Assembly: GCA_963704435.1 (NCBI GenBank)
Contig: OY969902.1
Location: 300,001 to 332,000, forward strand
Source of the DNA: an uncultured archaeon
GTDB taxonomy: Archaea > Micrarchaeota > Micrarchaeia > Micrarchaeales > CABMGC01
Direction: 5' to 3'
DNA: 32,000 nt
The notes below the pieces were generated by a model, which saw only the letters and a list, made by a program, of their open reading frames with translations, was not told the DNA's origin and searched no databases. The translations under genes and the position numbers were made by a program. Within the stretch, counting starts at the first letter, position 1; every line of letters begins with the position of its first letter. Below, one piece after another: positions 17,713-32,000 of this stretch.

Positions 17713-18708
17713 TTAACCGCTCGTTCCTCTCAGAGGAAGGCGCGAGGACCGGCCATTCCCGCCAAGCATCGCCTTTATCCGCTTGAGGTCCTTTTCCAGC
17801 GACGCGGCGTTCGTCGTCGACCTAAGCGCCGCCGCGGGGTGGTACGTTATGAAATAGGTGATTCCGCCCTTCGCAAACGCCCTTCCTCGGCTGCCTGCGA
17901 TCCTGTCGATGCCGAGGACCGATGCGCTCGCCGTCCTGCCTAGGAGTATTATCGTCTTAGGTTTCACGATTCCTATCTGCGCGTCGAGGAACTTCCTGCA
18001 CGCCGCCAGCTCACCGCGCGTCGGCGCACGATTTCCAGGGGGCCTGAATGGAACCATGTTGGTTATGTAGAGGTTCTCCCTTCTCAAGCCCGCCTTCCTC
18101 AGGAGCGACTCAAGCTTCCGGCCGCCTCTCCCGACGAACGGCCTGCCCAGCGCATCCTCAGTAGCGCCTGGCGCCTCACCCAGCAGCATGATCTCTGCGT
18201 CGAGCGGACCCTCTCCTTTCACGAGCTTCTTACTAAGCCGCCATCCCTTGGATTTCGGCGGCAGCCTTGCGTATTCGGAATCCAGCTTTTTCATCCGCTC
18301 GTGTCTGCCGATGTAGTCGAACACGCGCGGAGCTATGCGCTCCAGGTCCCTATATTTTATCCGCTCTGCGAAGCCCTCATAATCCAGCCACTCGTATCCT
18401 ATGTGCTCTCTAGACAACCTGACCCTTTTCGTCCTGGCCTTTCCAAGGAAGAACTTGTCGCGCTTGAGCACTTTCTCCTTCCCCCTTGTGAAGAAGTATC
18501 TCGTCTCCGCAAGGAAGTAGGGTATGAAGGACACCTCCAGGCCTGTCTCCTCCTTCAGTTCGCGGTGCGCCGCATCCGCGGCGTGCTCCCCCTTCTTTAT
18601 GTGACCCTTGGGCAGGTCGCAGTCCTTCACCCTCTTCAGCAGGAGGACCAGCGTCCTTCCGCGCTCGATCCGGTATACGAAGACGCCTGCGGAGTACTCG
18701 AAAATCAT
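17713..18708 (-). CDS. fusion protein: N-terminal NUDIX hydrolase plus C-terminal family-4-like uracil-DNA glycosylase
   Basis: Start taken at the ATG at 18708, an ATGA overlap with the upstream gene. The Nudix box is 'GHIKKGEHAADAAHRELKEETGL'. UDG motif A is 'LLGEAPGATEDALGRPFVGRGG' and motif B is 'TYHPAAALR'. Confidence 0.75.
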   Translation of the reverse strand: MIFEYSAGVFVYRIERGRTLVLLLKRVKDCDLPKGHIKKGEHAADAAHRELKEETGLEVSFIPYFLAETRYFFTRGKEKVLKRDKFFLGKARTKRVRLSREHIGYEWLDYEGFAERIKYRDLERIAPRVFDYIGRHERMKKLDSEYARLPPKSKGWRLSKKLVKGEGPLDAEIMLLGEAPGATEDALGRPFVGRGGRKLESLLRKAGLRRENLYITNMVPFRPPGNRAPTRGELAACRKFLDAQIGIVKPKTIILLGRTASASVLGIDRIAGSRGRAFAKGGITYFITYHPAAALRSTTNAASLEKDLKRIKAMLGGNGRSSRLPLRGTSG

Positions 18709-20246
18709 CGCAATCCCACTATGCCCTCCGAAATGCATAGCGCGGTAAGCATGTTCCTCCTCACTGTGGCGTTTGCGCTCCCTCCGTCAGGACCGTTCAG
18801 CAGCAGGTAGTACGCGGCGCTGTAGCCCGCCGAGCACGTGCTGTTGCGGAGCACGCCAGGGGGTATGACTATGTAGGTCCCGGCAACGGTCGACGAGGAG
18901 TTCTGCAGCGCGAGCGGGAGGTCGGCACCGTATACCACGAACGTCGTCCTGTTGGAGATCACGTCAAGCACCGTCTCGCTTATTCCGGTGGCGCTCACCA
19001 TCTCGAGCTTTCCCGCCACGGTGTCGTTGCTCTCGATGTTCTTGAGGACGGCGGGGTTCGGCCCGCTCATCTGCATCACCACCGGAGACGACACGCTTAT
19101 CGTCTTGTTGAAGAGGTCGAAAAGGACATAGTCCCCCGTCGGGCTTGCTATGGACAGGCTTGTCAGGTTGCTCCCGCCTATCATGCCCGCCACCGAGGAT
19201 TCGACCTCCTTGTTGCTGTAGTTGAACGCCACCCTGTTCGCGAGAATGATTGGGGAGGTGGGAGCAGATACTGAAACGTTCGCGGTCGTGAGAAGGTACA
19301 GCGCGGGGAATGCAAGCGCAAGAAGTATCGCGCACAGGTATATGCCTCCGTTCCCCGATTCTTTCTTTCCCTTCCGCTTGGCAGTCGGGCCCTCCTTAGC
19401 AAGGGACAGGCCGTACTTCCCTGCGACCAGCACCATCGCGGCGATCGCGATGTAGAACAGTATCACACCGGCCGATGCGTGCACGAGGGCGATTATGCTG
19501 CTGGGCCCGTAGGTCAGCCAGGCGAACGATACGCCGAGCATCCTCACGATGTTCAGCACGAACAGCAGCGCAACTCCGCTCGATACCCAGACGACCTTCT
19601 TCCGGTTCTTCCCTGAGTATAAGTATGCGATGGGGACCAGGAACAGCGCCATCGCCACGAAGATCCCCAGGCTTACGCAAGCCTGTCCGATGCCCAGGCT
19701 GTATCCGTTAGCGCTTATCGCTAGCGGAGCGATGTATGACGCGCTCGGCGCGAACAGCTTGATGAAATGGTATACCAGGAGCGTGTTGAAGGATGTGAAC
19801 GCTCCGTAGGAGTTGAGTATCAGGAATAGCACTGCGGGCGACGCGAATACAGAATAGAGCATCAGGCCCCTGAAATTGCTTATGCTGTCGAGGCCGAACA
19901 GGAGGGTAGCGAGCGCCGCGAAGGCCAGCGGCAGCAGGAGCAGGTCGACGCTGAAGCTCGCGAACAGGAAAGACAGGTAGAACCTCGCGAACAGCGAGAC
20001 CAGCACGAACGCCGCGAACATCGCCGAGCCTGCGGCCAGGTCCCTGGCCCCGACGTGCGGCTCGGGCCTCGTCTTCGCGGAGAACAGCACGAAAAGCGGG
20101 ATCATGAGCAGCGGTACGATTATGTAGCTGGAAGGGTCTGTGTCGCTTATGGAGAAGGGAGTAGTAAGGAACGATGATACGAGCAGCACAAGGACTGCCA
20201 CGAAGAAGACGGCTATGCCAACGTTCATGCCATACTTGATTCTCAT
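18705..20246 (-). CDS. archaeosortase/exosortase-family membrane protein with extra TM and about 190-aa extracytoplasmic C-terminal domain
   Basis: 513 aa with a polytopic N-terminal 280 aa. Family-typical residues appear in the expected order: 'GIGQACVSLG' (Cys190), 'LNIVRMLG' (Arg235) and 'LVHASAGVILF' (His256). A basic loop, one more TM, and a sequon-rich domain follow. Confidence 0.7.
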   Translation of the reverse strand: MRIKYGMNVGIAVFFVAVLVLLVSSFLTTPFSISDTDPSSYIIVPLLMIPLFVLFSAKTRPEPHVGARDLAAGSAMFAAFVLVSLFARFYLSFLFASFSVDLLLLPLAFAALATLLFGLDSISNFRGLMLYSVFASPAVLFLILNSYGAFTSFNTLLVYHFIKLFAPSASYIAPLAISANGYSLGIGQACVSLGIFVAMALFLVPIAYLYSGKNRKKVVWVSSGVALLFVLNIVRMLGVSFAWLTYGPSSIIALVHASAGVILFYIAIAAMVLVAGKYGLSLAKEGPTAKRKGKKESGNGGIYLCAILLALAFPALYLLTTANVSVSAPTSPIILANRVAFNYSNKEVESSVAGMIGGSNLTSLSIASPTGDYVLFDLFNKTISVSSPVVMQMSGPNPAVLKNIESNDTVAGKLEMVSATGISETVLDVISNRTTFVVYGADLPLALQNSSSTVAGTYIVIPPGVLRNSTCSAGYSAAYYLLLNGPDGGSANATVRRNMLTALCISEGIVGLR

Positions 20247-20366: not shown

Positions 20367-20807
20367 ATGCCGACCGCAAGATACAGGTACCTGCCGCACA
20401 CCGCGGACATAAAATTTGTAGCGTATGGCAAGGACCTCAGGGAACTGATTGAGAACTCCGCGCTCGCGCTGCTGAACGTCATGCTCGACACTCGGAAGAT
20501 AAAAAGAGGGAAGGGAAAAGCGAAGATGATCGTGATAAATGAGAAGGCAGACATCTGGGAGAACATGATCTGGTATGCGCTCCAGGACATGCTCACCAGG
20601 ATCGATGAGAAGTCGCTGTGCGCATTCGAGTTCAAGGTTAAGTCGCTGTCCATGGAAAAGGGCGGGATATGGATGGCTGGTGAGCTGCGATACAGGGGCG
20701 CGGACGCATCGTGCTTCCTTACGGAGGTGAAGGCGGTGACCCCCTACGACATGAAAGTGAGGAAGACCAAAGGCGGCTACGAGATGGCTGTCGTGCTCGA
20801 CGTGTGA
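20367..20807 (+). CDS. archease
   Basis: Start at the first ATG; the track uses an upstream TTG. 'YRYLPHTADIKFVAYGKDL' is the archease N-terminal signature, and the size of about 146 aa fits. Confidence 0.8.
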   Translation: MPTARYRYLPHTADIKFVAYGKDLRELIENSALALLNVMLDTRKIKRGKGKAKMIVINEKADIWENMIWYALQDMLTRIDEKSLCAFEFKVKSLSMEKGGIWMAGELRYRGADASCFLTEVKAVTPYDMKVRKTKGGYEMAVVLDV

Positions 20808-20815
20808 AGAAGGCC

Positions 20816-22612
20816 ATGGGACGGCCCGCCAGTCTCACCATAAAGATTAAGATGCTACTCGTGCAAAGACACCATAGGGAGAAGATGAGGCGCTTCGGGT
20901 TTGAGATATACATACAGAAAGCGAAGCCCGGCGACACAAGTTGGAAGAATTTTATCAACACCGTATTCGATTACGACAGGGAATTCACGATAGAAGCGGA
21001 ATTTCTTGCGAGCGACGTCAACCTATATCTCTACTCAAACAGGGACCTGTCGAATCTGGCAACGAAGATACTTCCATTCATCCTCAAACCCATCAAGATT
21101 GCGCAGAAGCAGGAGGCATCCCCGCGCAAAATTAGACCGAGGCCGTACTTTTTCCTGCTGCCGGGCAACAAGAACCTGCTGGAGATAAAGGAGCATCAGA
21201 AAATCAAGAATGGCCTGGATCTTAAGAGCGTCGTCTGGCATTTCAGGTCGTTTTTCAGAGTGAAGGTAAACACCATGACCTTCATGTTCGAGGATGGAGA
21301 AGACGGACTGAGGACGGCCAAGAAGTATGCGCTGGGAATACCCTTCCGCCTGCTTGAGCAGATAGACTGGTCCAAGGCCGTCAAGTACAAAAAGAAGGAA
21401 ATGCCCGCATACCTCAACATCGAAAATGAATCCGATCTGTTCGTGCAAGGAAAGTCGGAAAGCATTTTGGAGGTCGATGGGTTCCCATACCTGAACGCGC
21501 AGAGCTACCTGTCGCTCAGGGGCTTCGATTTCGAAAAGCATACCCTGATACTGGGGCAGACTGGGGTCGGAAAATCAAAGCTCATAACCCTTCTTGTGAA
21601 AAGCATGGAGAGGCTTCAGTCAAAGGACAAGTATGCGGTAGTCGTGATAGACCCCCACGCCTCATTGTTCTCTGACTTCGGTGGAGTGAAGGGCGCCGTG
21701 AGCCTGGACTTCGTAAAGTCCTACTGCGACCTGTTCGTCAAGGGCGCGGACCCTAAGATGGCTACCGAGCTTACGCTGCTCCTGTTCAAGACCCTGCTGA
21801 AGGACCAGTTCAATCCCAGGCTCGAGCGCGTGCTGAAGTACTCCTCGTTCTCCCTGATCTCGGCGGGCGCGATGTCGCTCAACAACATGAGGAAGTTCCT
21901 TTCGGAAATCGAGTATCGAAAGGACATACTGGACAAGCTGCCTGACGAGGACGCTACGGCGCACTTCTTCGACACGGACTTCATAGAAGCGCAAACGCAG
22001 TTCTATGACACCGCGATAATGCCCATACTCTCCCTTATCGACGAGCTCAACCTGCTTCCTGTGTTCAAGGAGGGCAGATCCCTGAAGGACGTGATAAGCG
22101 ACAACTTCCTCACGGTGTTCTCCCTTTCGAGGATATCCCTCGGGGACAGGGCCTCAAGGCTCATCGCCGGGCTGCTGATACAGCAGCTGTTCCTGATGGC
22201 GCAGGGCGGGATGCTCCGCAAGAAGGTAATCCTGGTGATAGACGAGGTGCCTATGGTGGAGAACGACGCCATGATAGCCATACTCTCCGAATCCAGGAAG
22301 TTCGGCATGTCGCTGTTCCTCTCCATGCAGTTCCTGGATCAGATAAGCGCGCCGCTGCAGAAGGCGATCCTTTCGAACGTCTACAACTATTTCGTATTCA
22401 AGACCGACGAGAAAGACGCAGAGACGCTCGGAAAGAACCTGTACCTCGACATACCCTCCGAGGTGATGGAGGCGGCGAAGGAGAGGGGCGAGAGCAAGGA
22501 TGACATAAAGAAGAGGCTGTTCACGACGCTCAACGCGAGGGAGTGCATCGTGAGGGTGTACTCGAACGGCAAATACTACCACTGCTTCAGGGCAAAGACT
22601 CTCGAATCGTGA
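20816..22612 (+). CDS. HerA/FtsK-superfamily P-loop NTPase (DUF87-like) with uncharacterised 270-aa N-terminal region
   Basis: The ATG at 20816 lies 8 nt after the archease stop codon. It has Walker A 'ILGQTGVGKSKL', 'VVVIDPHASLF', Walker B 'VILVIDEVPMV' and 'SESRKFGMSLFLSMQF'. Confidence 0.7.
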   Translation: MGRPASLTIKIKMLLVQRHHREKMRRFGFEIYIQKAKPGDTSWKNFINTVFDYDREFTIEAEFLASDVNLYLYSNRDLSNLATKILPFILKPIKIAQKQEASPRKIRPRPYFFLLPGNKNLLEIKEHQKIKNGLDLKSVVWHFRSFFRVKVNTMTFMFEDGEDGLRTAKKYALGIPFRLLEQIDWSKAVKYKKKEMPAYLNIENESDLFVQGKSESILEVDGFPYLNAQSYLSLRGFDFEKHTLILGQTGVGKSKLITLLVKSMERLQSKDKYAVVVIDPHASLFSDFGGVKGAVSLDFVKSYCDLFVKGADPKMATELTLLLFKTLLKDQFNPRLERVLKYSSFSLISAGAMSLNNMRKFLSEIEYRKDILDKLPDEDATAHFFDTDFIEAQTQFYDTAIMPILSLIDELNLLPVFKEGRSLKDVISDNFLTVFSLSRISLGDRASRLIAGLLIQQLFLMAQGGMLRKKVILVIDEVPMVENDAMIAILSESRKFGMSLFLSMQFLDQISAPLQKAILSNVYNYFVFKTDEKDAETLGKNLYLDIPSEVMEAAKERGESKDDIKKRLFTTLNARECIVRVYSNGKYYHCFRAKTLES

Positions 22613-22617
22613 TCCGC

Positions 22618-23355
22618 ATGGACGAGAACAAGGCGAAGCAGATCACCGATTACGTGTTCAAGGACGTCTTCGGGGTCGGAAACCCCTTCTCCCTCGAGGA
22701 GATAAGGAAGAGGTTCGCGTTCGACATCGAGCTCCCGAAGAAAGCGAGGGGCGCGTTCACCGAAGAGGACGTCTGGACCATCTCTGAGACAAAGGACAGG
22801 GTTATAGGGCGGAAGGCCCTCATGGCGCGGATGAAGAAGGACGAATGGATGCTGGAGAAAAAGCCCATAGGTTCGGTGGAGGAACTGCTGGGCCGCTGGA
22901 GCGAGATAAACTACATGCAGGGGGAGCGCTATGAGGACTCCACGGAAGTAGCGGAATCGGATAACGTCTACCACAGCACGTCCGTGTATAGGAGCACGGA
23001 GACGCTCCACTCGCAGAACATCGTATTCTCAAATACAAATTTCGGATGCAGCTACCTCGTCGCCAGTTCGGACAACTCGAAGTGCATCCTGGGCGTGAGG
23101 ATGCGCAAGAGCGTATTCTGCTCCTCGGGATTCGAGATCTCGGGATCGGACAAGGTATCTAAGAGCATGTATATACGCGGATGCACGGACCTGTATGAAT
23201 GCATGTTCTGCTCGCAGCTCAGGTCGAAGAGGTACTGCATAGCGAACATGCAGTTCGAGAAGGGCGAGTACCTCAGGATAAAGGACATGCTGGTTAAGTG
23301 GACCCTGGAGAACTTCGACGCAAAGCTGAAATCGAAGCTGGGCTTGAGCCGATAG
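22618..23355 (+). CDS. hypothetical protein with C-terminal Cys-ladder repeat region
   Basis: The ATG lies 5 nt after the ATPase stop codon. The C-terminal half has roughly 11-12-aa periodic segments ending in 'CTDLYECMFCSQLRSKRYCIANMQFEKGEY'. I cannot name a family. Confidence 0.55.
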   Translation: MDENKAKQITDYVFKDVFGVGNPFSLEEIRKRFAFDIELPKKARGAFTEEDVWTISETKDRVIGRKALMARMKKDEWMLEKKPIGSVEELLGRWSEINYMQGERYEDSTEVAESDNVYHSTSVYRSTETLHSQNIVFSNTNFGCSYLVASSDNSKCILGVRMRKSVFCSSGFEISGSDKVSKSMYIRGCTDLYECMFCSQLRSKRYCIANMQFEKGEYLRIKDMLVKWTLENFDAKLKSKLGLSR

Positions 23356-23480
23356 CGCTGATTTCCGCACAAAATTAAAAAGCCAGGGAAGGGCTGAGGC
23401 AGTTAAGCTTACCCTTTTCTTGGGTAGGCTCATAGGATGACCCTAAAGGTATTAATACGAGTAAATTATTAAGAGTTGGC

Positions 23481-23699
23481 ATGGAACTTTGGAAGAAAAG
23501 GCAGCACCACAACGTTGCCAGGGACACCACCCGGGTTATGAAGCTCGGCAACGCCCAGCTTCTCATCACGATACCGGCGGAGATCGCCAGGTGGAAGAAG
23601 ATCGGCAAGGGTACGCTGCTGAAGTGGTCCGATGCGGGGCAGGACCGCGTACTCGTGGAGGTAAAAGAAGAAACAGTCAGCGAGCTCGCTGGATATTAG
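23481..23699 (+). CDS. AbrB/SpoVT-type (swapped-hairpin) DNA-binding protein
   Basis: 72 aa. 'VMKLGNAQLLITIPAEIARWKKIGKGTLLKWSDAGQDRVLVEV' fits the AbrB/MazE looped-hinge pattern. A TATA-like 'tattaata' lies about 30 nt upstream. Confidence 0.6.
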   Translation: MELWKKRQHHNVARDTTRVMKLGNAQLLITIPAEIARWKKIGKGTLLKWSDAGQDRVLVEVKEETVSELAGY

Positions 23700-23827: not shown

Positions 23828-24016
23828 TCACGTTACGTGCCTCATCGGTTGGTCCTCGGGTTCGCCGAGGAGACGGCGGAGCTCCTTAACCCTCGCGAGT
23901 ATGACTGCACTCGGTTCCTTTATGGTCCGCTCCGTGAACTCCCGAAAGTATTCCCTCGACAGCTCCGCAATCCTTAGCCTGATAGCCTCGACGTTTATTT
24001 GCTTTGTTTCTTCCAT
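23828..24016 (-). CDS. hypothetical small helical protein (last gene of the minus-strand block)
   Basis: 62-aa ORF with charged, helical composition, tightly following the upstream micro-ORFs. Confidence 0.4.
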   Translation of the reverse strand: MEETKQINVEAIRLRIAELSREYFREFTERTIKEPSAVILARVKELRRLLGEPEDQPMRHVT

Positions 24017-24249
24017 GTTTTCACCTAATCGTCACCGAGGAGCAGCAAAAGCAGTTCCAGCTCCTCCTCACTCAGCCCTTCCATGCCAGTCTCCTCTTGC
24101 GGGACCGGCGGCAGTTCCTTCTTCTTCCAGGGCCAACCCACTATAACACCCCTGCCATTCGCTTATAAGATGCTTTACAGGTCGCGCACAGGCTCAAAGT
24201 GGCAGTTACACCCATATCCACCTCAGTTGCGAGACCCCTGAACCCCATT

Positions 24250-24684
24250 TTAAGCACCTATTCGCTTATTCCGCTCCAAAGCCATAGTTTCGAGCCACCT
24301 TTTGCGCGATTCTTCCTTATCTTTGAGGTATTTCACCCTCTCCGGCTCGGGCATGGCCGCGAGCTTCGCGTCCTCGCGCAGCTCACGATCCTGCAAGCCC
24401 TTGTTTGGCAGTAATGCCTGCTGCTCAGGTGTGAGGGCCCTGTAAAATGCCTCCCTGAGTTCGCGGGGGACGTGGCAGGTGCGCTGTGGGTCACCTGGAA
24501 GTCCGCGCCGCTGCACTATGAGCCTGCCATCCACGTCCTTATCATAGGTGGCAAAGCAGAGCGGACATTCGTTTGCCGCGCACCTGTGGAACGACCTGCA
24601 CCCGTACTCTTTGGTAAGTTGCGGCGTGCCTGGCGGCGCACTGTCAGGTCCGCATATAAGCTGGTTCTCATTCGTCTTTTTCAT
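24250..24684 (-). CDS. hypothetical Cys-rich (zinc-finger-like) protein
   Basis: 144 aa with an N-terminal 'C..(19)..C....H.C...ECPLC' cluster and a charged helical C-terminus. It overlaps the upstream ORF by 17 nt. Confidence 0.5.
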   Translation of the reverse strand: MKKTNENQLICGPDSAPPGTPQLTKEYGCRSFHRCAANECPLCFATYDKDVDGRLIVQRRGLPGDPQRTCHVPRELREAFYRALTPEQQALLPNKGLQDRELREDAKLAAMPEPERVKYLKDKEESRKRWLETMALERNKRIGA

Positions 24685-24856
24685 GGTTATCCCTCTTGAA
24701 CAGGTAGTAGTTCAGCAGGCCCCACGCCAGCGCCGCCTCCGAACTCGCAAAGCTGAGGAGCTGCATGATAGTCAGGTTTATATCCTCCATGCTGGTCCTC
24801 GGTCTCCTTTCGTAGTTCTTCGGCACGTCTTTGGCAGGATAGGTTGGTTCGCACAT
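24668..24856 (-). CDS. hypothetical small protein with one hydrophobic helix
   Basis: 62-aa ORF in the same tightly packed block. Confidence 0.4.
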   Translation of the reverse strand: MCEPTYPAKDVPKNYERRPRTSMEDINLTIMQLLSFASSEAALAWGLLNYYLFKRDNHEKDE

Positions 24857-24862
24857 GGTAAT

Positions 24863-25009
24863 TCACCCCTTCTTATCGCGCATTATCTTTATCGCATCCT
24901 CGAAGCTGTGCGGTCCATGATGGTTGCGCTCATAATGGCAGCGCAGCAGCAGGGTCCGACCTTCGCCTCTTGGCAAAGTCACGGAAACATTACAGGTTTT
25001 CTTATCCAT
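24863..25009 (-). CDS. possible 48-aa micro-ORF
   Basis: Manual translation gives MDKKTCNVSVTLPRGEGRTLLLRCHYERNHHGPHSFEDAIKIMRDKKG*. Its ATG lies 2 nt after the stop of the 663-aa gene. It ends 6 nt before the next ATG. Confidence 0.3.
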   Translation of the reverse strand: MDKKTCNVSVTLPRGEGRTLLLRCHYERNHHGPHSFEDAIKIMRDKKG

Positions 25010-25011
25010 AG

Positions 25012-27003
25012 TCATACCTCAGCGTCCTTATTCTCCTGCCTGAAGATCGCGGTAGCGCGTATATCGTCAGGTTTGCCCGGAACCTCCTCGACTTCCCCTC
25101 CGAATACCATGAAGTTGCACAGGATCGGGCGCCAGGACTCGGGAGCGAACAGGAATTTAGGGTAACGACCTACCTTTATGCCCTCCGGGTGGGCCAGGAG
25201 CGCAGCCTTAACCTCTTTTAGAGGTGTTATAGGCATTATAGTGGTAGGTATGGCAGGTTTGGTGGCTTCTACACTCTCTTTATTATTTTCGTTCTCGCTA
25301 CATGGGGGGTGGCTCGGAGGTGCCTGACCTACCAAACCCACCAATGTTACCCTTTTATCTTCCATATTTTTGGTCCACTTATACTGGTTCCGGTTAGGGT
25401 GGTCCTTAGCCTCGACCACTTCCATTCTTATTCCTGAAAGAACCCTGATGTTTTTGTATTTATCGAGGAACCTGCTGAATTTCAGCCATGCTTTGCCTTC
25501 GTCTTTGCTCCAGTCCAGCCAACCGAACAGGCCGGAGAAGTCGCTCTCGGCGTCCATGAACTCGCTCTTTATATCTTTTTTGTTTATCCAGTTCTCTCCC
25601 CACTTCGCATAGGCTAATTCAAAGAGCACTTTCATCTCCCGCGTCTCGCGGTCACCGCCCATAGCGTCCGAAGTGTCGTTTGGCTTGCACGGGCTCCCAT
25701 AACCGGCGGCCTCCATTATCCCGCCCGCTACCCGCGCCCATTCGTGGTAGCTGGTGAACGGGACGTTGCCAGGCCTCATGCCAGTCTCGCACCAGTTCCT
25801 TACCAGCGCATACAGGGCGCTCAGTATGTCACCCCTGTTCTCCGCGATCCATTCGTGCAGGTTCGGGGTCTCGAACTTCCGGTCATTCGGGTCCTCCTCG
25901 CCGAATTGCAGATTGACGAACACGCACCGCGCCGCCAGGTCAGGGGTGTACGTTATCCCTGTGTTTGCCGACATGGAGAGCTCCAAAGTGTTCGGGTACG
26001 TCAGCATGGTGTTGCTCCCGAGCTGCCTGTCGGTTATCACCTCGGCAGTCGCGGCCCTTTCGAGTTCTGCGCTGTTGATATAACCCTTGTTGTTGCTCGA
26101 ATGTATGCGGCCCCTCCCGCTTTTGAGTGTCGAGAGCACTTTCTTCCTGAACTCGTCGTCATGCGTCTCCCTCTCGCTCGATATTGCGGGGTCCTCTATG
26201 GCCGCGCCCTCGAACACTATGCCAGGTATTCCAGCGCAGTAGTCTTTGCCCGACCTCTCCCTATTCGCCTTAAAGAAGAATATGGGCGTCCTGGAAGTCT
26301 CGCTCTTATAGAGGCCTCTGCAAAACTGCGTAAGCAGCCCAGCAATGGCATTGGCGCGGTCCTGCTCGGCCACGAAACAGAACTCGCGGTATATCCTGCC
26401 TATCAGTGCCTTCGCGTCCTCCAGCTTCATGTCGGTCCTGATCTCCGGCGCGTCCAGAGGCAGCCAGGAGCGAAGCCCTGGGTCATAGCCCTTTTGCGGG
26501 AACGCGAGTTTGCCGTCTTTAAGCAGCGGCATAGGCACGCTGTATATCCTCTCTATCGCGGGGAGGTTGGCCCTGAACTGGGCCTCGCTCGCCAGCGTAA
26601 CCTCCGCGTTGTTCGGGGATAGGCTTTTAGTCACGAAATAGTTGCTCAGCCTCTCATGCTTCTCTATGCCGACGGTAAAATGCTCCTCGATCAAAGTTAT
26701 GAGCTCTGTGCTCTTTACCGGCTGGAATACCAGCACCTTCTTATCCTTCCGCTCACCTACCGCCTGCATTGCGAGCCTGACGACCTGGCGCTCATTTGGT
26801 TTGTAAAAAAGCACCTTCTTATCGCTGAAATACATGCCTAATTCAGTTGCAAACTCTCCGTTAGGCCTGCCTTCTCCTGGGAGCAGCAGTTCCTTTTTGG
26901 CCGCCTTCGCCGCCATGTATTCCGTTGCGGCAGTGACAGGATCGCGCCCGGCAGCCATTGCGTCGGCGACGCGCTTTTCAAGGAGCTTATCTTCGCTCAT
27001 CAT
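25012..27003 (-). CDS. large putative replication-associated protein with SF3 (D5/P4-type) helicase-like layout and atypical P-loop
   Basis: 663 aa. The central region reads 'FFFKANRERSGKDYCAG ... ELERAATAEVITDRQLGSNTMLTYPNTLELSMSANTGITYTPDLAARCVFVNLQF ... ILSALYALVRNW'. This follows the order of Walker A-like, B, motif C (..N) and Arg-finger regions of primase-helicases, but with non-canonical residues. Confidence 0.35.
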   Translation of the reverse strand: MMSEDKLLEKRVADAMAAGRDPVTAATEYMAAKAAKKELLLPGEGRPNGEFATELGMYFSDKKVLFYKPNERQVVRLAMQAVGERKDKKVLVFQPVKSTELITLIEEHFTVGIEKHERLSNYFVTKSLSPNNAEVTLASEAQFRANLPAIERIYSVPMPLLKDGKLAFPQKGYDPGLRSWLPLDAPEIRTDMKLEDAKALIGRIYREFCFVAEQDRANAIAGLLTQFCRGLYKSETSRTPIFFFKANRERSGKDYCAGIPGIVFEGAAIEDPAISSERETHDDEFRKKVLSTLKSGRGRIHSSNNKGYINSAELERAATAEVITDRQLGSNTMLTYPNTLELSMSANTGITYTPDLAARCVFVNLQFGEEDPNDRKFETPNLHEWIAENRGDILSALYALVRNWCETGMRPGNVPFTSYHEWARVAGGIMEAAGYGSPCKPNDTSDAMGGDRETREMKVLFELAYAKWGENWINKKDIKSEFMDAESDFSGLFGWLDWSKDEGKAWLKFSRFLDKYKNIRVLSGIRMEVVEAKDHPNRNQYKWTKNMEDKRVTLVGLVGQAPPSHPPCSENENNKESVEATKPAIPTTIMPITPLKEVKAALLAHPEGIKVGRYPKFLFAPESWRPILCNFMVFGGEVEEVPGKPDDIRATAIFRQENKDAEV

Positions 27004-27188
27004 GCCACCCTCGAAGTCTCGGAGATTCGATCAATGCTGGCCCAACCGATAAGCTCCTCTTTGCCGTTGAAATAGCGCAGCACGATATAGTTCGGCTCGA
27101 TTTTAAGCAGCGTGCCGAACCGCTTATATCCGTCCTTCTGCACCACAAGGACGTTTCTGCCTAACAATTCGTTTTCTCCCATTGCCAC
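27000..27188 (-). CDS. small beta-rich protein, possibly Sm-like fold
   Basis: 62 aa. 'GRNVLVVQKDGYKRFGTLLKIEPNYIVLRY...IGWASIDRI' resembles the Sm1/Sm2 spacing. It has an ATGA overlap with the downstream gene. Confidence 0.35.
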   Translation of the reverse strand: MAMGENELLGRNVLVVQKDGYKRFGTLLKIEPNYIVLRYFNGKEELIGWASIDRISETSRVA

Positions 27189-27208
27189 TACCTCGTTTAA
27201 TCATTCGC

Positions 27209-27343
27209 CTATCTCCTGTACCTGAACCCCGTATATCTGAACTGGTGGCCCGTGACCGTCGAGGTGGCTATCCCGTTCTCGTCTATGGTGAACGGCACCC
27301 TCCGCCTTATCACGGGATCGAAAGCAGTGATATATCTCGCCAT
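27209..27343 (-). CDS. possible 44-aa micro-ORF
   Basis: Manual translation gives MARYITAFDPVIRRRVPFTIDENGIATSTVTGHQFRYTGFRYRR*. Its ATG shares one nucleotide with the upstream TGA. Confidence 0.25.
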   Translation of the reverse strand: MARYITAFDPVIRRRVPFTIDENGIATSTVTGHQFRYTGFRYRR

Positions 27344-27504
27344 CAACTCACCACAAAGCGAACCTCCAACCGCATGGAGCCGGGTAGCAACTTACTGAAC
27401 TTCTTGCACTTGCACCCCTTCACGAAGCAGGCACCCCTGCCAACGCGCCCAAACCCGAAGGTGTGGACGTGCTCCTTCGCATCATGTCCGCATCCGCATT
27501 TCAT
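27343..27504 (-). CDS. possible 53-aa zinc-binding micro-protein
   Basis: Manual translation gives MKCGCGHDAKEHVHTFGFGRVGRGACFVKGCKCKKFSKLLPGSMRLEVRFVVS*. It has a 'CGCGH...EH...C...GCKC' pattern and an ATGA overlap with the upstream gene. Confidence 0.35.
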   Translation of the reverse strand: MKCGCGHDAKEHVHTFGFGRVGRGACFVKGCKCKKFSKLLPGSMRLEVRFVVS

Positions 27505-27770
27505 GCCTTCACCCTCAAAGTATCCTGCTGCTCCAACGCCTTCAGGAGCTCCGCCTTCTTTACGAATAGCTGTCTCTGCAACTGCCTGAGCTCCCCAGCG
27601 AACCTCGGGTCGCTCAGGCCCAGCGCGTACAGCCTTATCTTCTCTATCAGCGCGTACAGCTCAGAGAAGGTCGTGCCTATTGCCTGCCCCTGCCTGTCGG
27701 TCTCGATAGTCCTCTCTATCTCCGCCTCCATGCCCCTGAGTCTTATCATTTCGGTCTTCAGCTCATCCAT
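27501..27770 (-). CDS. hypothetical coiled-coil protein
   Basis: 89 aa with a heptad-like charged composition. It overlaps the upstream gene by 8 nt. Confidence 0.45.
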   Translation of the reverse strand: MDELKTEMIRLRGMEAEIERTIETDRQGQAIGTTFSELYALIEKIRLYALGLSDPRFAGELRQLQRQLFVKKAELLKALEQQDTLRVKA

Positions 27771-28209
27771 GCTTATCCCTCATTAAAAGCGCATGCTTAT
27801 CCCTCATTAAAAGCGCGAATGATGCAATGAGAACAGCGAGATAGGCCAGATAGCCATACATGAACGGCACGGATTGACTATCCTGCACAGGCAGCGATTC
27901 GTTGCTGACTATCTCGGCCCACCACTGCGAGTACGCAGCAGGGTCTGAGGCTTCGAGCGCGGCCAGTTGAGTCACGTTCTCCGAGGTCGTCGAGATCGAG
28001 TACCCGACCAGCGGGGCGGGTGCTTTGTAGGTTAGTGGCAGGTGCAGCGCTATCGTTCCAGTCAGCCCAAACTGCGCGTCTATCGCTCTGTTTATGGTCT
28101 CGTGGTAGTATGCCCCGGCATATACCGCGAAATAAAACCCCAGTACCGCCAGCAGAACGAGCGCTGCCATGCCCTCACATAGCTTCTTTTCAAAGGTGTC
28201 CATTTCCAT
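27763..28209 (-). CDS. hypothetical membrane protein (N- and C-terminal TM helices)
   Basis: 148 aa with TM segments 'GMAALVLLAVLGFYFAVYAGAYY' and 'YGYLAYLAVLIASFALL' flanking an extracytoplasmic loop. The C-terminus carries the duplicated octapeptide. Confidence 0.5.
   Translation of the reverse strand: MEMDTFEKKLCEGMAALVLLAVLGFYFAVYAGAYYHETINRAIDAQFGLTGTIALHLPLTYKAPAPLVGYSISTTSENVTQLAALEASDPAAYSQWWAEIVSNESLPVQDSQSVPFMYGYLAYLAVLIASFALLMRDKHALLMRDKHG
27768..27815. repeat. perfect 24-bp tandem duplication (2 copies)
   Basis: The sequence 'catgcttatccctcattaaaagcg' occurs at 27768-27791 and again at 27792-27815. It encodes the 'ALLMRDKH' x2 tail of the 148-aa protein. One copy contains the ATG of the next gene. 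Confidence 0.95.
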
Positions 28210-28229: not shown

Positions 28230-28904
28230 CTATAAAGACCTGAAAAATTCCAATATCGCATTTATCAGCGCGGTCAATCCCGCATAGCTGAAGGTCGGTG
28301 GCTGCGAGGACGGTGCTGACTGCGATCCTGCCGGTATCGTGGTGGTGACTGGAGGGATGTATGCCTGAACGCTGCCTATAAAGTAGTCTATCCTGGTGTC
28401 CGGGTGGTAAATCGCGGTGTAGTTATCTATCAGCACCGCCACCTCCCCGCTCTGGCCTGTGAGAGGGTTCGCGGTGTCGTTCAGCGTCGCATATATGGTG
28501 ACGTATGGGTTTGCCGTTGTCGGCCCCGCGTATTGCGGCAGCATGGCAGTTATATACTGCACCGGCACGCAGTAGTCCACTATCGTCTGGTAAGTGGTCG
28601 CCGTCCCGCTCAGAGCGGTCACTACCTGCTGGTTCGGTATGCCTATCTCCCCGAGCTGGCCGGTTTGGTTCCCATTGCGCCAGAAAGTAAGCACATAGTT
28701 GGAGGGGTTGCCGTTGAACGCCGCGCCTTGTACTATGATGGTGCTGCCCGGGTTCGTTATCCCGTCGAGGGTACCCTGGCAACCGCTCTGGCCGAACTGG
28801 AAGCCGTTGTATATGTTTTTGCCGAACCCCCCGAATGTCCAGGCGGCCAGCAGGCTCGCTATAACCAGGAGGAATATCAGCAATGCGAAGATTCTGCCGT
28901 TCAT
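28230..28904 (-). CDS. secreted/anchored protein (candidate structural protein of the element)
   Basis: 224 aa with an N-terminal signal/anchor 'IFALLIFLLVIASLLAAWTFGG', a Gly/Asn/Thr/Gln-rich beta-type composition and several sequons. It has an ATGA overlap with the upstream gene. Confidence 0.55.
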   Translation of the reverse strand: MNGRIFALLIFLLVIASLLAAWTFGGFGKNIYNGFQFGQSGCQGTLDGITNPGSTIIVQGAAFNGNPSNYVLTFWRNGNQTGQLGEIGIPNQQVVTALSGTATTYQTIVDYCVPVQYITAMLPQYAGPTTANPYVTIYATLNDTANPLTGQSGEVAVLIDNYTAIYHPDTRIDYFIGSVQAYIPPVTTTIPAGSQSAPSSQPPTFSYAGLTALINAILEFFRSL

Positions 28905-29158
28905 ATTATACCCGCGCTATAAAGCAGCATGAGGACCGCGACGGCCACGATGATTAGCCCTATTACCAGCAGTATTTTAGCGAGGCTGGCAACCACGACC
29001 AGCACAATTCCTATAAGCATCAGGCCCAGCGGCCCCGCATTCTGAATCGCCTGCACCGCATTGGTAGCGAACCATTGCTGCAAAGCCGAGGCTATGCCAG
29101 AGTTTATGCTCGTGGTGATGCTCGAAACAATATCAAACAGGGTAAGTATAGGCACCAT
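28901..29158 (-). CDS. small, highly hydrophobic membrane protein (candidate virion membrane/capsid protein)
   Basis: 85 aa with an amphipathic N-terminal helix. A 40-residue hydrophobic hairpin follows: 'GPLGLMLIGIVLVVVASLAKILLVIGLIIVAVAVLMLLY'. Confidence 0.5.
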   Translation of the reverse strand: MVPILTLFDIVSSITTSINSGIASALQQWFATNAVQAIQNAGPLGLMLIGIVLVVVASLAKILLVIGLIIVAVAVLMLLYSAGII

Positions 29159-29162
29159 ATTC

Positions 29163-30350
29163 TCACCCGCAGGCCACTATAAGGGTCCTCAGCCCCAGCC
29201 AAAGCACTACCTCAACGACCAGGGCCATAAAGGGCCACGCGAAGGCATAGAAGCGGTATTTGTTGCCCGGGCTGCCATAATACTGGACATAAAGGATAGT
29301 CGCAAGCAGGGCCATGACCATGCCGAATATCAGTGAATAAGGCAGCGTCACCGAATTGCCGTTTATCGTGAGCACCGACCCTGCGGTATAAGCGCTTACT
29401 AGATAGCCGTTGAATATGCTGGTGGCATTGCTTGAGCAGCTCGGCGCGGTGGTGTTCTTACTGGTGGCCGAGGTCGCGCTTACCGTTTGGGTTATGTTGC
29501 TGGCCGTCGTAGTTCCGCCGCCCGAGGGGGTCGAGTAGGAATAGCTGAACTGGTTGTTGCCGAGGGTATTGCTATAAAGACTGCCTGAAAGAGTATACTG
29601 CCCGTTCTTGATGTAACTCGCGGGGACCTGGACCAGCACATTGCCAGGGGTGTGCACTATCACCCCGTCAATGTTTATGGCATAGTCAGGAATAGCCTGC
29701 AAAATATTGGCAGTAACGAATGATAGGGTGCCGTTGGTGGAGGTATAATTGGCGTACTGATGCACACCCGCCGCCAGGTAGTTCCCCGCGAGCTTAACAT
29801 TGCCGTAAGTTGTGCTCTCTGTGACGTTGCCGACCAGCCCGATTATTATGGGGCTGTTGGCAGGAACGCCCATAGCGATAAGTTCGTTGGCCTGCTGCGC
29901 GTTCCACTTCGTAATATTCAGGTAGGTCCAGTATTTTATTATCGTGGTTCCCCCGAATACGGCGGTGCCGGGGTTGGCGTATCCCGCGCAATCGGAGGCG
30001 GCATAGGAGGAGGTGCAGGCGAGGTATTGGTCCCCCCTGCTGCTCTGCGTCGCTCCGAAGCCGGAGATGACTATGTTTCCCGAAGGCGCGACCATGTTGG
30101 AGACCACGACGGTAGTGACCCCGTTTGAGGTAGTAAACGGGATTATTCCGCCAGCGTAGGGCGACGCGGTGCAGTTGCCCTGGCCCCAGCAATACGGGTT
30201 GTAGGCACCTATCTGAAAGGAACCGCTGAGGCCTCCCGGAAGGCCGATTATGCTGAACGTAAGGCTGTTATTCGGTATGGTATTCGATCCGGCGGCCATG
30301 CCTGCCATGAGGAGCAGGGCCAGGATAAGGAACCGCCGCGAGATGTTCAT
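29163..30350 (-). CDS. secreted glycoprotein-like protein with Sec signal peptide and two C-terminal TM helices (candidate spike/adhesin)
   Basis: 395 aa with the signal 'RRFLILALLLMAGMAAGS', about 10 N-x-S/T sequons, paired Cys residues, a T/S-rich segment, and C-terminal TMs 'LIFGMVMALLATILYV' and 'FAWPFMALVVEVVLWLGL'. Confidence 0.6.
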   Translation of the reverse strand: MNISRRFLILALLLMAGMAAGSNTIPNNSLTFSIIGLPGGLSGSFQIGAYNPYCWGQGNCTASPYAGGIIPFTTSNGVTTVVVSNMVAPSGNIVISGFGATQSSRGDQYLACTSSYAASDCAGYANPGTAVFGGTTIIKYWTYLNITKWNAQQANELIAMGVPANSPIIIGLVGNVTESTTYGNVKLAGNYLAAGVHQYANYTSTNGTLSFVTANILQAIPDYAINIDGVIVHTPGNVLVQVPASYIKNGQYTLSGSLYSNTLGNNQFSYSYSTPSGGGTTTASNITQTVSATSATSKNTTAPSCSSNATSIFNGYLVSAYTAGSVLTINGNSVTLPYSLIFGMVMALLATILYVQYYGSPGNKYRFYAFAWPFMALVVEVVLWLGLRTLIVACG

Positions 30351-30679
30351 ACGCTCACCGCCAAAGTGCGGGCCCGCAGCTCCGCCGCCGCCTGCCGCAT
30401 TTTCAAGACTAATGGCCGCAACAAGGCCACGAGCTGGCTGTCCTTCACCAAGACCAGCGAGTTGCCCTCGCAGATTCCGACGAGGGAGCGTTCGCCATTG
30501 AGGGCCAGCTTATCCCGGAGCGTACAAGGGATATAGAGGAATAGAGCACCGTTCTTGCTTTCGACGCGGCAGAGATCGAGAGTCGGCCCTATCCCGAATC
30601 CTTTTAATAGGCGGGTGAGCCTTTCCTCATTAGCTGGACTGTTGGGGGCGTTTGCAGCGCCCTCCGATTCCTTTTTCAT
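30347..30679 (-). CDS. AbrB/SpoVT-like DNA-binding protein (second copy of this fold class in the element)
   Basis: 110 aa. 'ALFLYIPCTLRDKLALNGERSLVGICEGNSLVLVKD' fits the swapped-hairpin pattern. It has ATGA overlaps on both sides. Confidence 0.45.
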   Translation of the reverse strand: MKKESEGAANAPNSPANEERLTRLLKGFGIGPTLDLCRVESKNGALFLYIPCTLRDKLALNGERSLVGICEGNSLVLVKDSQLVALLRPLVLKMRQAAAELRARTLAVSV

Positions 30680-30960
30680 GGCGCTTTCACCTCATCGCTC
30701 TCCGACTTGGGCTGTTTCTTGACCAAAGCGCGGTACCACAGCAGAAGCTGCTCGGCGGGGGTTGGCTGGCCGGTCATCGAATTACCCCGAGGGCGTTGCC
30801 GAGCAAGAATCGAACCAATGAGGAACGCGATCGCTCTGTCTTTTTGGCTTCGGCATCCAGTCTTTTCTTCAATGCCGTCGACATTACGATAATTACGCGC
30901 TCTTCCTGTGCTTCTCGCATCCGACTCTCCTTTGTATGTCAGTATTATGTGCCGAAGCAT
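30676..30960 (-). CDS. hypothetical basic protein (first gene of the block)
   Basis: 94-aa ORF whose ATG directly abuts the AT-rich region. A TATA-like 'gtataattac' lies about 25-30 nt upstream on the minus strand. Confidence 0.35.
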   Translation of the reverse strand: MLRHIILTYKGESDARSTGRARNYRNVDGIEEKTGCRSQKDRAIAFLIGSILARQRPRGNSMTGQPTPAEQLLLWYRALVKKQPKSESDEVKAP

Positions 30961-31012
30961 ATATTAAAATAATAAAACCTAAGTAATTATACGACTATAA
31001 GAGGTAATTTAC
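30961..31012. promoter_or_regulatory. AT-rich divergent promoter region
   Basis: A 52-nt stretch of about 80% AT separates the minus-strand block from the plus-strand wHTH gene. An SD-like 'gaggt' (31001-31005) lies 7 nt before the TTG at 31013. Confidence 0.45.
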
Positions 31013-31990
31013 TTGTATAATTCAAAAGGCGCGAATCTGGCCAATGCATCGATATCGAGAATCTGCCTTGTGCTCCTATCCCATCTTGACGAACCGATAC
31101 CGATAAAGCAAATAACCGAAGAAGTCTACGCCGATGCTCGTACTGGCTACAGAGCAATGCCTAATCGAGAGAAAAATAAAGCAGGTCGCAAACGCAACTC
31201 AGGCGAATTCTTCAAAGCAAATTACCAGGAAGTTCACCAATGTTGTGCGGACCTAAAAAAGCAGGGGCTCATAGAAATAACCAAATCAGATAAAGATGGA
31301 AGGCAATCGCTCGTTAAGCTCAATCTGAAAGGCCTTCTCACAAAAATCTTCGGGCCAAGAACCAATAAAAAATCACTCGTTGTGCTAAATAAATCTCTAT
31401 CGCCTATTGAAGAATGGAACCACATAATTGCAAATATTAAAAGCGCCATACTTGGAACTAAATCTCTTATGAAAACGCGCTCTGATTATATCGCTGCAAT
31501 TAAAAAAAGCGGTGGGAGCGAATACGAACGAAATATTGCTTTGCCTGAGAAGGAAAAAGAAATGCAAAAATACGCTAAAGAGCTAACGCAAAAAGAACAA
31601 AGATTAAGGAGTATGCAAAACGATTTGGCAGAGGCAAAGGCCATAGGGAAGTCCTCTGCATTCAGTCTAAATGATTCCGAAATAAATTTTCTTTTGAAAA
31701 GACTTGACTGCACCAATTTGAAAAGAGAATTCAATTGGCTTAGAAAAGGAGGAATGCTTAATTACCTGAATGGCAATTCGAACATTATCAAAATTCTCGT
31801 TGCCGTAATTAAAAGATTAGACTTACCAGGTTCTTGCTATGGTGACTATCACATATCGCTCAAACTACTTGGAATTGACGGAACAGATACTGCGCCAATA
31901 ACTGAAAACGTTCTACTTTCCTTTATTTGGAAAAGTGGTCTTCCCGATGTCGTAGAATTTTACGATAAATTCTATTGGAAAGCGCGGTGA
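31013..31990 (+). CDS. winged-helix (MarR/TrmB-like) DNA-binding protein with long uncharacterised C-terminal region; low GC
   Basis: 325 aa with a TTG start preceded by an SD. 'ICLVLLSHLDEPIPIKQITEEV...VHQCCADLKKQGLIEITKSDKDGRQSLVKLN' has a wHTH-like layout. GC drops sharply relative to everything upstream. Confidence 0.55.
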   Translation: MYNSKGANLANASISRICLVLLSHLDEPIPIKQITEEVYADARTGYRAMPNREKNKAGRKRNSGEFFKANYQEVHQCCADLKKQGLIEITKSDKDGRQSLVKLNLKGLLTKIFGPRTNKKSLVVLNKSLSPIEEWNHIIANIKSAILGTKSLMKTRSDYIAAIKKSGGSEYERNIALPEKEKEMQKYAKELTQKEQRLRSMQNDLAEAKAIGKSSAFSLNDSEINFLLKRLDCTNLKREFNWLRKGGMLNYLNGNSNIIKILVAVIKRLDLPGSCYGDYHISLKLLGIDGTDTAPITENVLLSFIWKSGLPDVVEFYDKFYWKAR

Positions 31991-32000
31991 ATCATTTTTC

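Follow-up and report, generated by a model that had tools for sequence, protein, structure and literature searches.

Do three adjacent genes for membrane and secreted proteins in the genome of an uncultured micrarchaeon encode the structural proteins of a virus, or do they serve the surface of the cell? The question is raised by a 32,000-nucleotide stretch of contig OY969902.1 (assembly GCA_963704435.1, positions 300,001 to 332,000 of the forward strand; Micrarchaeales, CABMGC01), hereafter the window, all of whose positions are counted from its first letter. The first-pass annotation, which was made from the sequence without database searches, likened the genes at 28230-30350 to the structural cassette of an enveloped virion, while allowing that they could equally be a non-viral surface or adhesion module. 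We find that these genes and a fourth one very probably belong to a small mobile element of this micrarchaeon as its membrane and surface module; the four proteins are named by size p395, p85, p224 and p148.

29163-30350, minus strand: p395, a predicted surface protein with a Sec signal and a two-helix C-terminal anchor (open reading frame list, hydropathy).
28901-29158, minus strand: p85, an essentially uncharged hydrophobic protein modelled as two alpha-helices, an ORFan (open reading frame list, composition).
28230-28904, minus strand: p224, an ORFan predicted to be secreted or anchored by its N-terminus, which has a Pro/Thr/Ser linker and a C-terminal helix (open reading frame list, hydropathy).
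27763-28209, minus strand: p148, which completes the module as its fourth membrane protein and has a hydrophobic segment at either terminus (hydropathy).

The list of open reading frames (ORFs) places three minus-strand frames of 395, 85 and 224 aa exactly at these coordinates, and the earlier description of three consecutive, translationally coupled genes is borne out. The stop codon of the preceding small gene, p110, overlaps the start codon of p395 as ATGA (30347-30350), p395 and p85 are separated by a spacer of 4 nt, and p85 and p224 again overlap as ATGA (28901-28904). Within the three frames, the GC content of third codon positions (GC3) is 0.62-0.72, above that of first and second positions (GC1 and GC2), whereas overlapping alternative frames display the opposite pattern (GC3 ~0.5, GC1 ~0.75). 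The p395, p85 and p224 frames are therefore coding.

The genes lie within a unit whose two ends can be fixed to the nucleotide and which brings its own recombinase and replication protein.

23381-23393, no strand: attL, the core of the left attachment site, a 13-bp direct repeat AGCCAGGGAAGGG (local alignment of both element ends).
25012-27003, minus strand: p663, a replication protein corresponding to the helicase-like C-terminal part of phage/plasmid primase-polymerase proteins.
31992-32000, minus strand: 3' end of a tyrosine integrase gene, which runs to 33224 beyond the window (Pfam Phage_integrase, 2.8e-24).

The second copy of AGCCAGGGAAGGG occupies positions 33289-33301, past the window end, in the 3' end of a tRNA-Cys gene identified by ARAGORN, and imperfect inverted arms of ~21 bp adjoin both attachment-site (att) cores. 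The integrase carries a C-terminal zinc ribbon. From att to att the unit measures 9,921 bp, and an ENA metagenome contig of 9,840 bp (L011) aligns from 33291 to 23391, ending at both att cores; the repeats and the ends of this contig together define the element as a discrete unit. Both same-genus genomes (G305 and G312) lack the element, and its codon usage is unlike that of the host (GC3 of 0.62-0.72 vs 0.79-0.88). The element sits at tRNA-Cys as an integrated 9.9-kb unit that encodes its own tyrosine integrase. The SRP54 protein of the host is 75-83% identical to that of Candidatus Micrarchaeota MAGs, which marks the host as a micrarchaeon, and the host genome consists of one 853-kb contig. 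A HerA/TraG-like ATPase gene at 20711-22612 was considered as a further gene of the element and rejected, because it is located outside attL and also occurs in genomes without the element.

A circular sibling of the element was recovered on a 9,837-bp contig (L013) by a protein search that led from P0002, a distant homologue of p395, to the long surface protein P0013. L013 is 99.2-99.9% identical to the window element and circularly permuted. It is a closed circle, since its two ends meet within the p224 gene and continue the reading frame. Hence, the mobile-element context implied by the viral comparison of the first-pass annotation is shown by the att repeats, the integrase, the att-to-att contig and this circular sibling. 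The closed 9.84-kb circle was found in related samples and represents a close relative of the window variant. In L013, ~370 bp stand in place of an integrase module (window 30968-33301 plus 23381-23575) that comprises a winged-helix (wHTH) gene, the integrase gene, att and the 5' half of the gene for a 72-aa protein. The breakpoint of this module falls at the TATA-like box that heads the operon.

The sibling also discloses the nature of p395. Its surface-protein gene is 2,113 nt longer and reads as 959 aa plus 142 aa, interrupted by a 1-nt frameshift. Proteins of a related cluster, P0004, read through the frameshift site, which puts the native surface protein at ~1,090 aa.

29447-29454, minus strand: deletion junction in the p395 gene, an 8-bp microhomology CACCACCG at which 2,113 nt are missing (gene-to-gene alignment).

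p395 corresponds to residues 1 to ~300 of the long protein joined to its last ~95 residues and, judging from this alignment, is an internal-deletion allele of the ~1,090-aa protein, not the native full-length product. It keeps the N-terminal domain (N-domain) and the two-helix membrane anchor; the long allele contains, in addition, tandem Ig-like repeat segments and a Gly-rich segment. A Logan contig that is 100% identical to the window (L014) begins exactly at the junction, at 29454, and another (L015) has the long allele, the long and short alleles coexisting in ERR11594402. Relative to L013, the integrase module adds 2.15 kb and the shortened surface gene removes 2.11 kb, the two forms measuring 9,908 and 9,837 bp.

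What kind of proteins does the module encode? The signal peptide, Thr/Ser-rich stalk and two C-terminal transmembrane helices ascribed to p395 all have matching segments by hydropathy and composition: a hydrophobic, signal-like N-terminus with an AxA-type cleavage site before 'S/T-SNT' that is kept in homologues, a Ser/Thr-rich segment at residues 270-310, and hydrophobic segments at ~334-358 and ~366-390. Paired cysteines are likewise found, 54/60 and 112/121, among six in total (the others being 305 and 394). The figure of about 10 N-glycosylation sequons holds as a count, with exactly 10 N-x-S/T sites, but does not amount to an excess over what the N/S/T-rich composition yields (shuffles 6.5 ± 2.2, P = 0.09). 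The host encodes a homologue of AglB/STT3, making N-glycosylation possible. Export through the twin-arginine (Tat) pathway, suggested by an 'SRRF' motif, was ruled out since the host lacks TatC, and for the same reason Sec is the reasonable reading of the p395 signal. The AlphaFold model of p395, built from a 5-sequence alignment, had a mean confidence (pLDDT) of 41, too poor for a fold search.

p85 contains only two charged residues (one Asp and one Lys) and is hydrophobic throughout residues 37-85, in keeping with its earlier description as extremely hydrophobic. Its first helix, in contrast, had been called amphipathic, which is not clearly so: the helix is uncharged and mildly hydrophobic, with a hydrophobic moment of 0.09 over residues 2-41 and 0.2-0.3 locally. 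Nor does AlphaFold model the proposed arrangement of one helix followed by a 40-residue transmembrane hairpin: its model (pLDDT 84.5) consists of two ~40-residue helices, at residues 2-41 and 43-82. The identical p85 protein is encoded on 4 contigs. For p224, the N-terminal anchoring proposed earlier agrees with the presence of an N-terminal hydrophobic segment.

Relatives of the surface protein are scarce. A word-indexed search with p395 returned p395 itself as the sole match, and a HMMER search of 1.8 billion representative proteins returned eight. Two of these (P0001 and P0003) are frameshifted or truncated copies of p395, and four are short N-domain fragments on short contigs. The remaining two are informative: P0002 (1,118 aa) has an N-domain 43% identical to that of p395, and P0004 (752 aa) shares the C-terminal anchor at 46% identity and carries repeats nearly identical to those of L013. 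N-domain relatives are accordingly few and distant (35-45% identity), and the long surface protein is a mosaic with the P0004 cluster. Pfam recognised no domain in the long alleles P0013, P0002 and P0004, and a scan of genome contigs for a member of the P0004 cluster gave no match.

P0002 is the last gene of a separate ~18-kb integrated element beside a tRNA-Thr gene.

L012 1-18080 and L030 5769-21329: the P0002 element (Logan SRR33270663 contig, 59 kb).

In addition to an integrase, this element encodes a P-loop ATPase of 496 aa with a weak likeness to HerA, several membrane proteins of polytopic and bitopic type, a hydrophobic protein of 69 aa and an N-terminally anchored one of 314 aa; a 754-aa helicase-like gene is situated past the tRNA. 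Besides the N-domain, no gene common to the window and P0002 elements was found, and the latter either belongs to another dark family of elements or is distantly related to the window element. At least 10 of its products are membrane or secreted proteins, and nearly all of its genes are unannotatable.

A cellular module, as the first-pass annotation pointed out, would be expected to have homologues among chromosomal core genes. None emerged: across ~300 sampled Micrarchaeota genomes, p224, p663 and p395 lack a true homologue, with p663 yielding none at all and p224 only marginal matches, and neither the N-domain nor the central repeats of the long allele have a paralogue on the host chromosome. 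The N-domain family is therefore uncommon, and its links are to mobile elements, not to the core genome. It is found only on mobile elements or short contigs, and the context that can be read is another integrated element. Weak p395 matches in other Micrarchaeota were rejected as orthologues, as they involve large surface proteins, cover only residues 134-315 and lack the neighbouring genes.

What, then, might such a module do? Our best guess, held with slightly less than even confidence, is that its proteins build a virion or a vesicle. p395, p85, p224 and p148 would insert into the host cell membrane and be N-glycosylated by the host AglB. The two C-terminal helices would hold p395 in the membrane, with the conserved N-domain of ~290 residues at the outer tip; in the full-length protein, the central repeat-rich part would form a stalk between the N-terminal domain and the anchor, and the deletion allele p395 would have kept tip and anchor while losing the stalk. 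The large protein would mediate adhesion or entry, and the two-helix hydrophobic hairpin p85 would supply the abundant subunit, of membrane, matrix or capsid type. Together, the four proteins would provide the protein complement of a membrane-derived particle by which the circular DNA reaches new cells, be it a plasmid vesicle or a virion of pleomorphic or spindle-like shape. The coexisting alleles, the mosaic with P0004 and the recurrence of the N-domain in the P0002 element suggest that the large protein behaves like a receptor-binding protein. The near-cancelling length differences between the two forms of the element could reflect a packaging limit.

The remark of the first-pass annotation that no motif ties the three genes to a known family was confirmed. 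None of the module proteins, p395, p85 and p224 included, has a family match in Pfam or PHROG; sequence searches of the PDB with p395, p85, p224 and p663 returned noise only; and tblastn matched p85, p224 and p395 to none of 50,697 records of phages and archaeal viruses. Scans of IMG/VR with p663, P0013, p224, P0002 and the ATPase of L012 revealed no relatives. Foldseek searches with the p85 model produced 0 matches in the PDB and only matches with E > 2 in BFVD. Structural matches to cellular transporters or S-layer components, named by the first-pass annotation as signs of a non-viral role, did not appear either, the p85 model being the one searched. Pairwise comparisons with the structural proteins of His1 (z < 3.2 in all pairs) and HRPV-1 yielded nothing significant.

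What the element shares with these viruses is a layout. HRPV-1 (FJ685651) is a 7-kb circle in which the spike protein VP4 is encoded beside small membrane proteins, and the element is likewise a small circle, both falling within 7-10 kb. In pleolipoviruses as in the element, one operon encodes small hydrophobic membrane proteins and, next to them, a large protein that has a signal peptide and is anchored C-terminally; pleolipoviruses also have swappable replication modules, and some integrate by means of a tyrosine integrase (10.1101/2025.02.15.638363), in which the element is alike. Unlike in HRPV-1, however, the small protein of the element follows the spike gene, the anchor consists of two helices and there is no VP8-like ATPase. 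Nor was any sequence similarity detectable between p85, p224 or p148 and VP3, ORF5, ORF6 or ORF7, or between p395 and VP4. The comparison with His1 (AF191796; VP21/ORF21, ORF23, ORF26-28) is of the same kind: both encode a hydrophobic helical protein of ~75-85 aa, a 148-aa protein with N- and C-terminal transmembrane segments, as in p148, and, beside small two-transmembrane proteins in His1, large proteins with a signal and a C-terminal anchor that serve, or in the case of p395 would serve, as adhesins. In contrast to spindle viruses, the element has no AAA+ ATPase, and the first helix of p85 is polar and uncharged and is not a transmembrane segment; p85 showed no sequence match to His1 ORF21 or in PHROG. 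The signature capsid protein of spindle viruses, with which the p85 model of two long helices invites comparison, is a hydrophobic alpha-helical hairpin, which together with an AAA+ ATPase makes up their morphogenetic module, and the corresponding module of pleomorphic viruses comprises VP3, VP4, ORF6, ORF7 and an AAA+ ATPase (10.1101/2025.02.15.638363). Given that the element has no such ATPase, membership in the pleomorphic or spindle family is unsupported, and only an organisational logic is shared.

The element might be a satellite of a helper virus, a plasmid-type replicon with some virion genes that depends on the helper for its ATPase and morphogenesis, modelled on pSSVx and on the spindle-virus-related circular elements (SRCEs) of haloarchaea and nanohaloarchaea. 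Like these, the element is a small circle that combines a plasmid-type primase/helicase replicase with some virion-type genes (10.1101/2025.02.15.638363). The co-occurrence of a primase-helicase-type replicase and a hydrophobic two-helix protein without an ATPase, as well as the 2.7-9.0 kb size of SRCE circles, fits this possibility. However, pSSVx and SRCEs carry recognisable homologues of the capsid protein or ATPase of a known helper virus, whereas the element has no known helper and no detectable homology of this sort; p85 has no detectable similarity to any spindle-virus capsid protein, and an adhesin gene of its own, 3.3 kb long, would be rare among satellites. We consider a satellite improbable.

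The replication protein bears on another alternative, namely that the element is an integrative plasmid. p663 matches phrog_10537 (1.4e-29) and phrog_19930, 'DNA polymerase/primase' (3e-10), and its tblastn matches at ~1e-18 are in phiCbK-like phages and a Methanosarcinales virus. Relatives also occur in small plasmids of Streptomyces and other hosts, of 6.5-14 kb, and members of this helicase-like family are fused to or located beside primase-polymerases. A further p663 homologue (42% identity) is encoded on an AT-rich contig of 8,463 bp (L038, Ga0222628_1001311), together with an HNH endonuclease, a DNA methyltransferase and many small zinc-finger ORFs. That contig has no membrane module, from which it follows that the replicase family moves between unrelated elements.

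On a plasmid, the membrane module would serve the host surface, with the large protein as an adhesin directed toward a Thermoplasmatales partner or other cells; p85, p224 and p148 would be membrane partners of the adhesin, and any transfer would occur by cell contact. The relatives of p663 on plasmids of similar size, the small closed circle as the episomal form and the failure of Pfam and PHROG to find a capsid, portal, terminase or ATPase gene all favour this explanation, as do the Ig-like repeats and Gly-rich segment of the long allele, which resemble, through weak matches, the large chromosomal surface proteins of other Micrarchaeota. Episymbiosis is a known trait of the host phylum. A large survey published in 2026 found 0 proviruses in 1,356 Micrarchaeota genomes (PMC13573593), which points in the same direction. 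On the other hand, the four membrane-protein genes take up ~4.7 kb of the 9.8-kb circular form, and to devote about half of a replicon to such proteins is typical of small viruses with a membrane and out of the ordinary for a cryptic plasmid. The apparent compensation of genome length, the absence of a host-chromosome paralogue of the N-domain or central repeats and the confinement of the N-domain family to mobile-element contexts or short contigs also argue against a role confined to the host surface. We regard the plasmid as a serious possibility, albeit less likely than not.

Known integrative plasmids provide a partial precedent. Members of the pT26-2 family and pR1SE integrate and encode secreted or membrane proteins of unknown function that perhaps aid their own transfer, and the element is integrative in the same manner. 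These plasmids, in contrast, measure 20-50 kb and carry HerA/VirB4-type ATPases, and the element, at 9.9 kb, has none: no conjugation ATPase of the VirB4 or HerA type is encoded within the att-bounded unit.

The last alternative is a pilus or conjugation-type apparatus. In it, p85 would be a VirB2/CedA1-like pilin, the large protein would be the adhesin at the tip, and p224 and p148 would be minor subunits; the power would come from an ATPase of the chromosome, for instance the HerA/TraG-like one encoded immediately outside attL. Conjugative pilins also have a two-helix shape, which the p85 model resembles. The 633-aa ATPase, with HerA, TrwB and TraG domains, is encoded 770 bp to the left of attL, and the P0002 element combines a HerA-like ATPase with polytopic membrane proteins. 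Yet this 633-aa protein falls outside the att-bounded element and, with a 270-aa partner, is present in genomes that lack the element; p85 matches neither TrbC/VirB2 in Pfam nor any PDB structure by Foldseek, and inspection of p224 and p148 revealed no canonical class III (prepilin) signal motif. An apparatus of this kind is, in our judgement, very improbable.

Several observations weigh against the membrane-derived particle that we favour. By its relatives, the p663 family does not tell a virus from a plasmid. No likeness in sequence or fold to any virion protein emerged from the searches described above, and Pfam and PHROG detected no AAA+ or packaging ATPase among the ORFs of the element besides the helicase-like p663. 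The size compensation is seen in one variant pair only. Finally, given that Micrarchaeota live in attachment to host cells, it could be the cell, and not a particle, that a surface adhesin serves. The element may be a new virus or a plasmid. More specifically, it might be the first recognisable virus lineage of Micrarchaeota, temperate, with a circular double-stranded DNA genome of ~10 kb and virion protein families without known relatives, a proposition we consider rather unlikely as it stands. Its virion would consist of a two-helix hydrophobic subunit, two additional membrane proteins and a modular adhesin at the tip, the stalk of which varies in length. No dedicated ATPase would take part in assembly, and genome length would be tightly limited, so that on gaining the integrase module the element would have been forced to lose 2.1 kb of the adhesin gene.

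Small integrative elements with a module of membrane proteins are already known from archaea; what is new here is the protein families. As far as we could find, the element is the first of its type to be precisely delimited for Micrarchaeota. In 2017, Burstein and colleagues reportedly described a putative circular virus of ~10 kb targeted by CRISPR spacers of ARMAN-1. Micrarchaeota are widespread, ultra-small symbiotic archaea, the mobile elements of which are almost unstudied. The element offers exact limits, integrated and circular forms, natural long and short alleles of a surface protein, and membrane proteins without relatives. If it forms particles, it would represent a new group of viruses for a major DPANN lineage and bring to light virion protein folds not seen before. 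As a plasmid, it would provide a natural vector backbone and a mobile carrier of an adhesin, with bearing on how episymbionts attach to their hosts.

The remaining genes of the element are mostly small. The head of the operon was identified from inspection of the sequence and the homology breakpoint of L013.

30960-30967, minus strand: TATA-like box TTAATATA at the head of the operon.
30774-30920, minus strand: 48-aa ribbon-helix-helix (RHH) regulator.
30676-30777, minus strand: 33-aa ORF coupled to the regulator.
30347-30679, minus strand: p110, a small cytoplasmic protein coupled to p395 (no Pfam or PHROG match).
27000-27770, minus strand: p62, p44/45, p53 (Cys/His-rich) and p89 (predicted helical, charged) (ORF list).
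23828-25015, minus strand: a run of small ORFans of 62, 38, 38, 144, 62 and 50 aa (ORF list; no Pfam matches).
23481-23699, plus strand: 72-aa protein, the 5' half of its gene within the swapped integrase module (no Pfam match).
31013-31990, plus strand: 325-aa winged-helix protein (weak MarR_2 match; absent from L013).

The regulator matches Pfam RHH_5 (4.2e-8), and very probably all of this is expressed as a single long operon, which extends from the TATA-like box and the regulator through the membrane module into p663. A promoter-proximal motif, CCCCTTAATA...ATGCTTCGGCACATA, is present in a single copy in the window (30950-30967) and duplicated just upstream of the RHH gene in L013 (5330-5380); the duplicated motif may be a regulator-binding or origin repeat. 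p110 is conserved in L013 and L011. Genes identical to those of p62, p44/45, p53 and p89 are present in L013 and L014, with family matches below threshold only, and the small ORFans at 23828-25015, several of them Cys/His-rich, are called as the same genes in both contigs. The C-terminal half of the 72-aa protein is identical to that of a 114-aa variant in L013.

The junction between the 3' end of p148 and p89 contains a perfect 24-bp tandem duplication (27768-27815). The C-terminus of p148 differs between variants, the protein being 148 aa long in the window, 146 aa in L014 and 135 aa in L013, and by this comparison the p148/p89 junction constitutes a third variable spot of the element. The winged-helix gene has a GC content of 39% (GC3 0.37) vs ~55% for the rest of the element, and, within the integrase module, is probably cargo that was acquired recently from a foreign source.

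Outside the element, the gene for the 633-aa ATPase and that for its 270-aa ORFan partner (20711-23355) adjoin attL. The pair recurs at ~50% identity in two genomes of the same genus and in another genus, where the 270-aa gene forms multi-copy arrays, and gives the impression of an independent module of two genes, accessory or mobile. Further to the left, at 17713-20246, host genes encode a fused NUDIX-uracil-DNA-glycosylase (341 aa) and a 513-aa archaeosortase/exosortase-like membrane protein, with an archease gene as neighbour.

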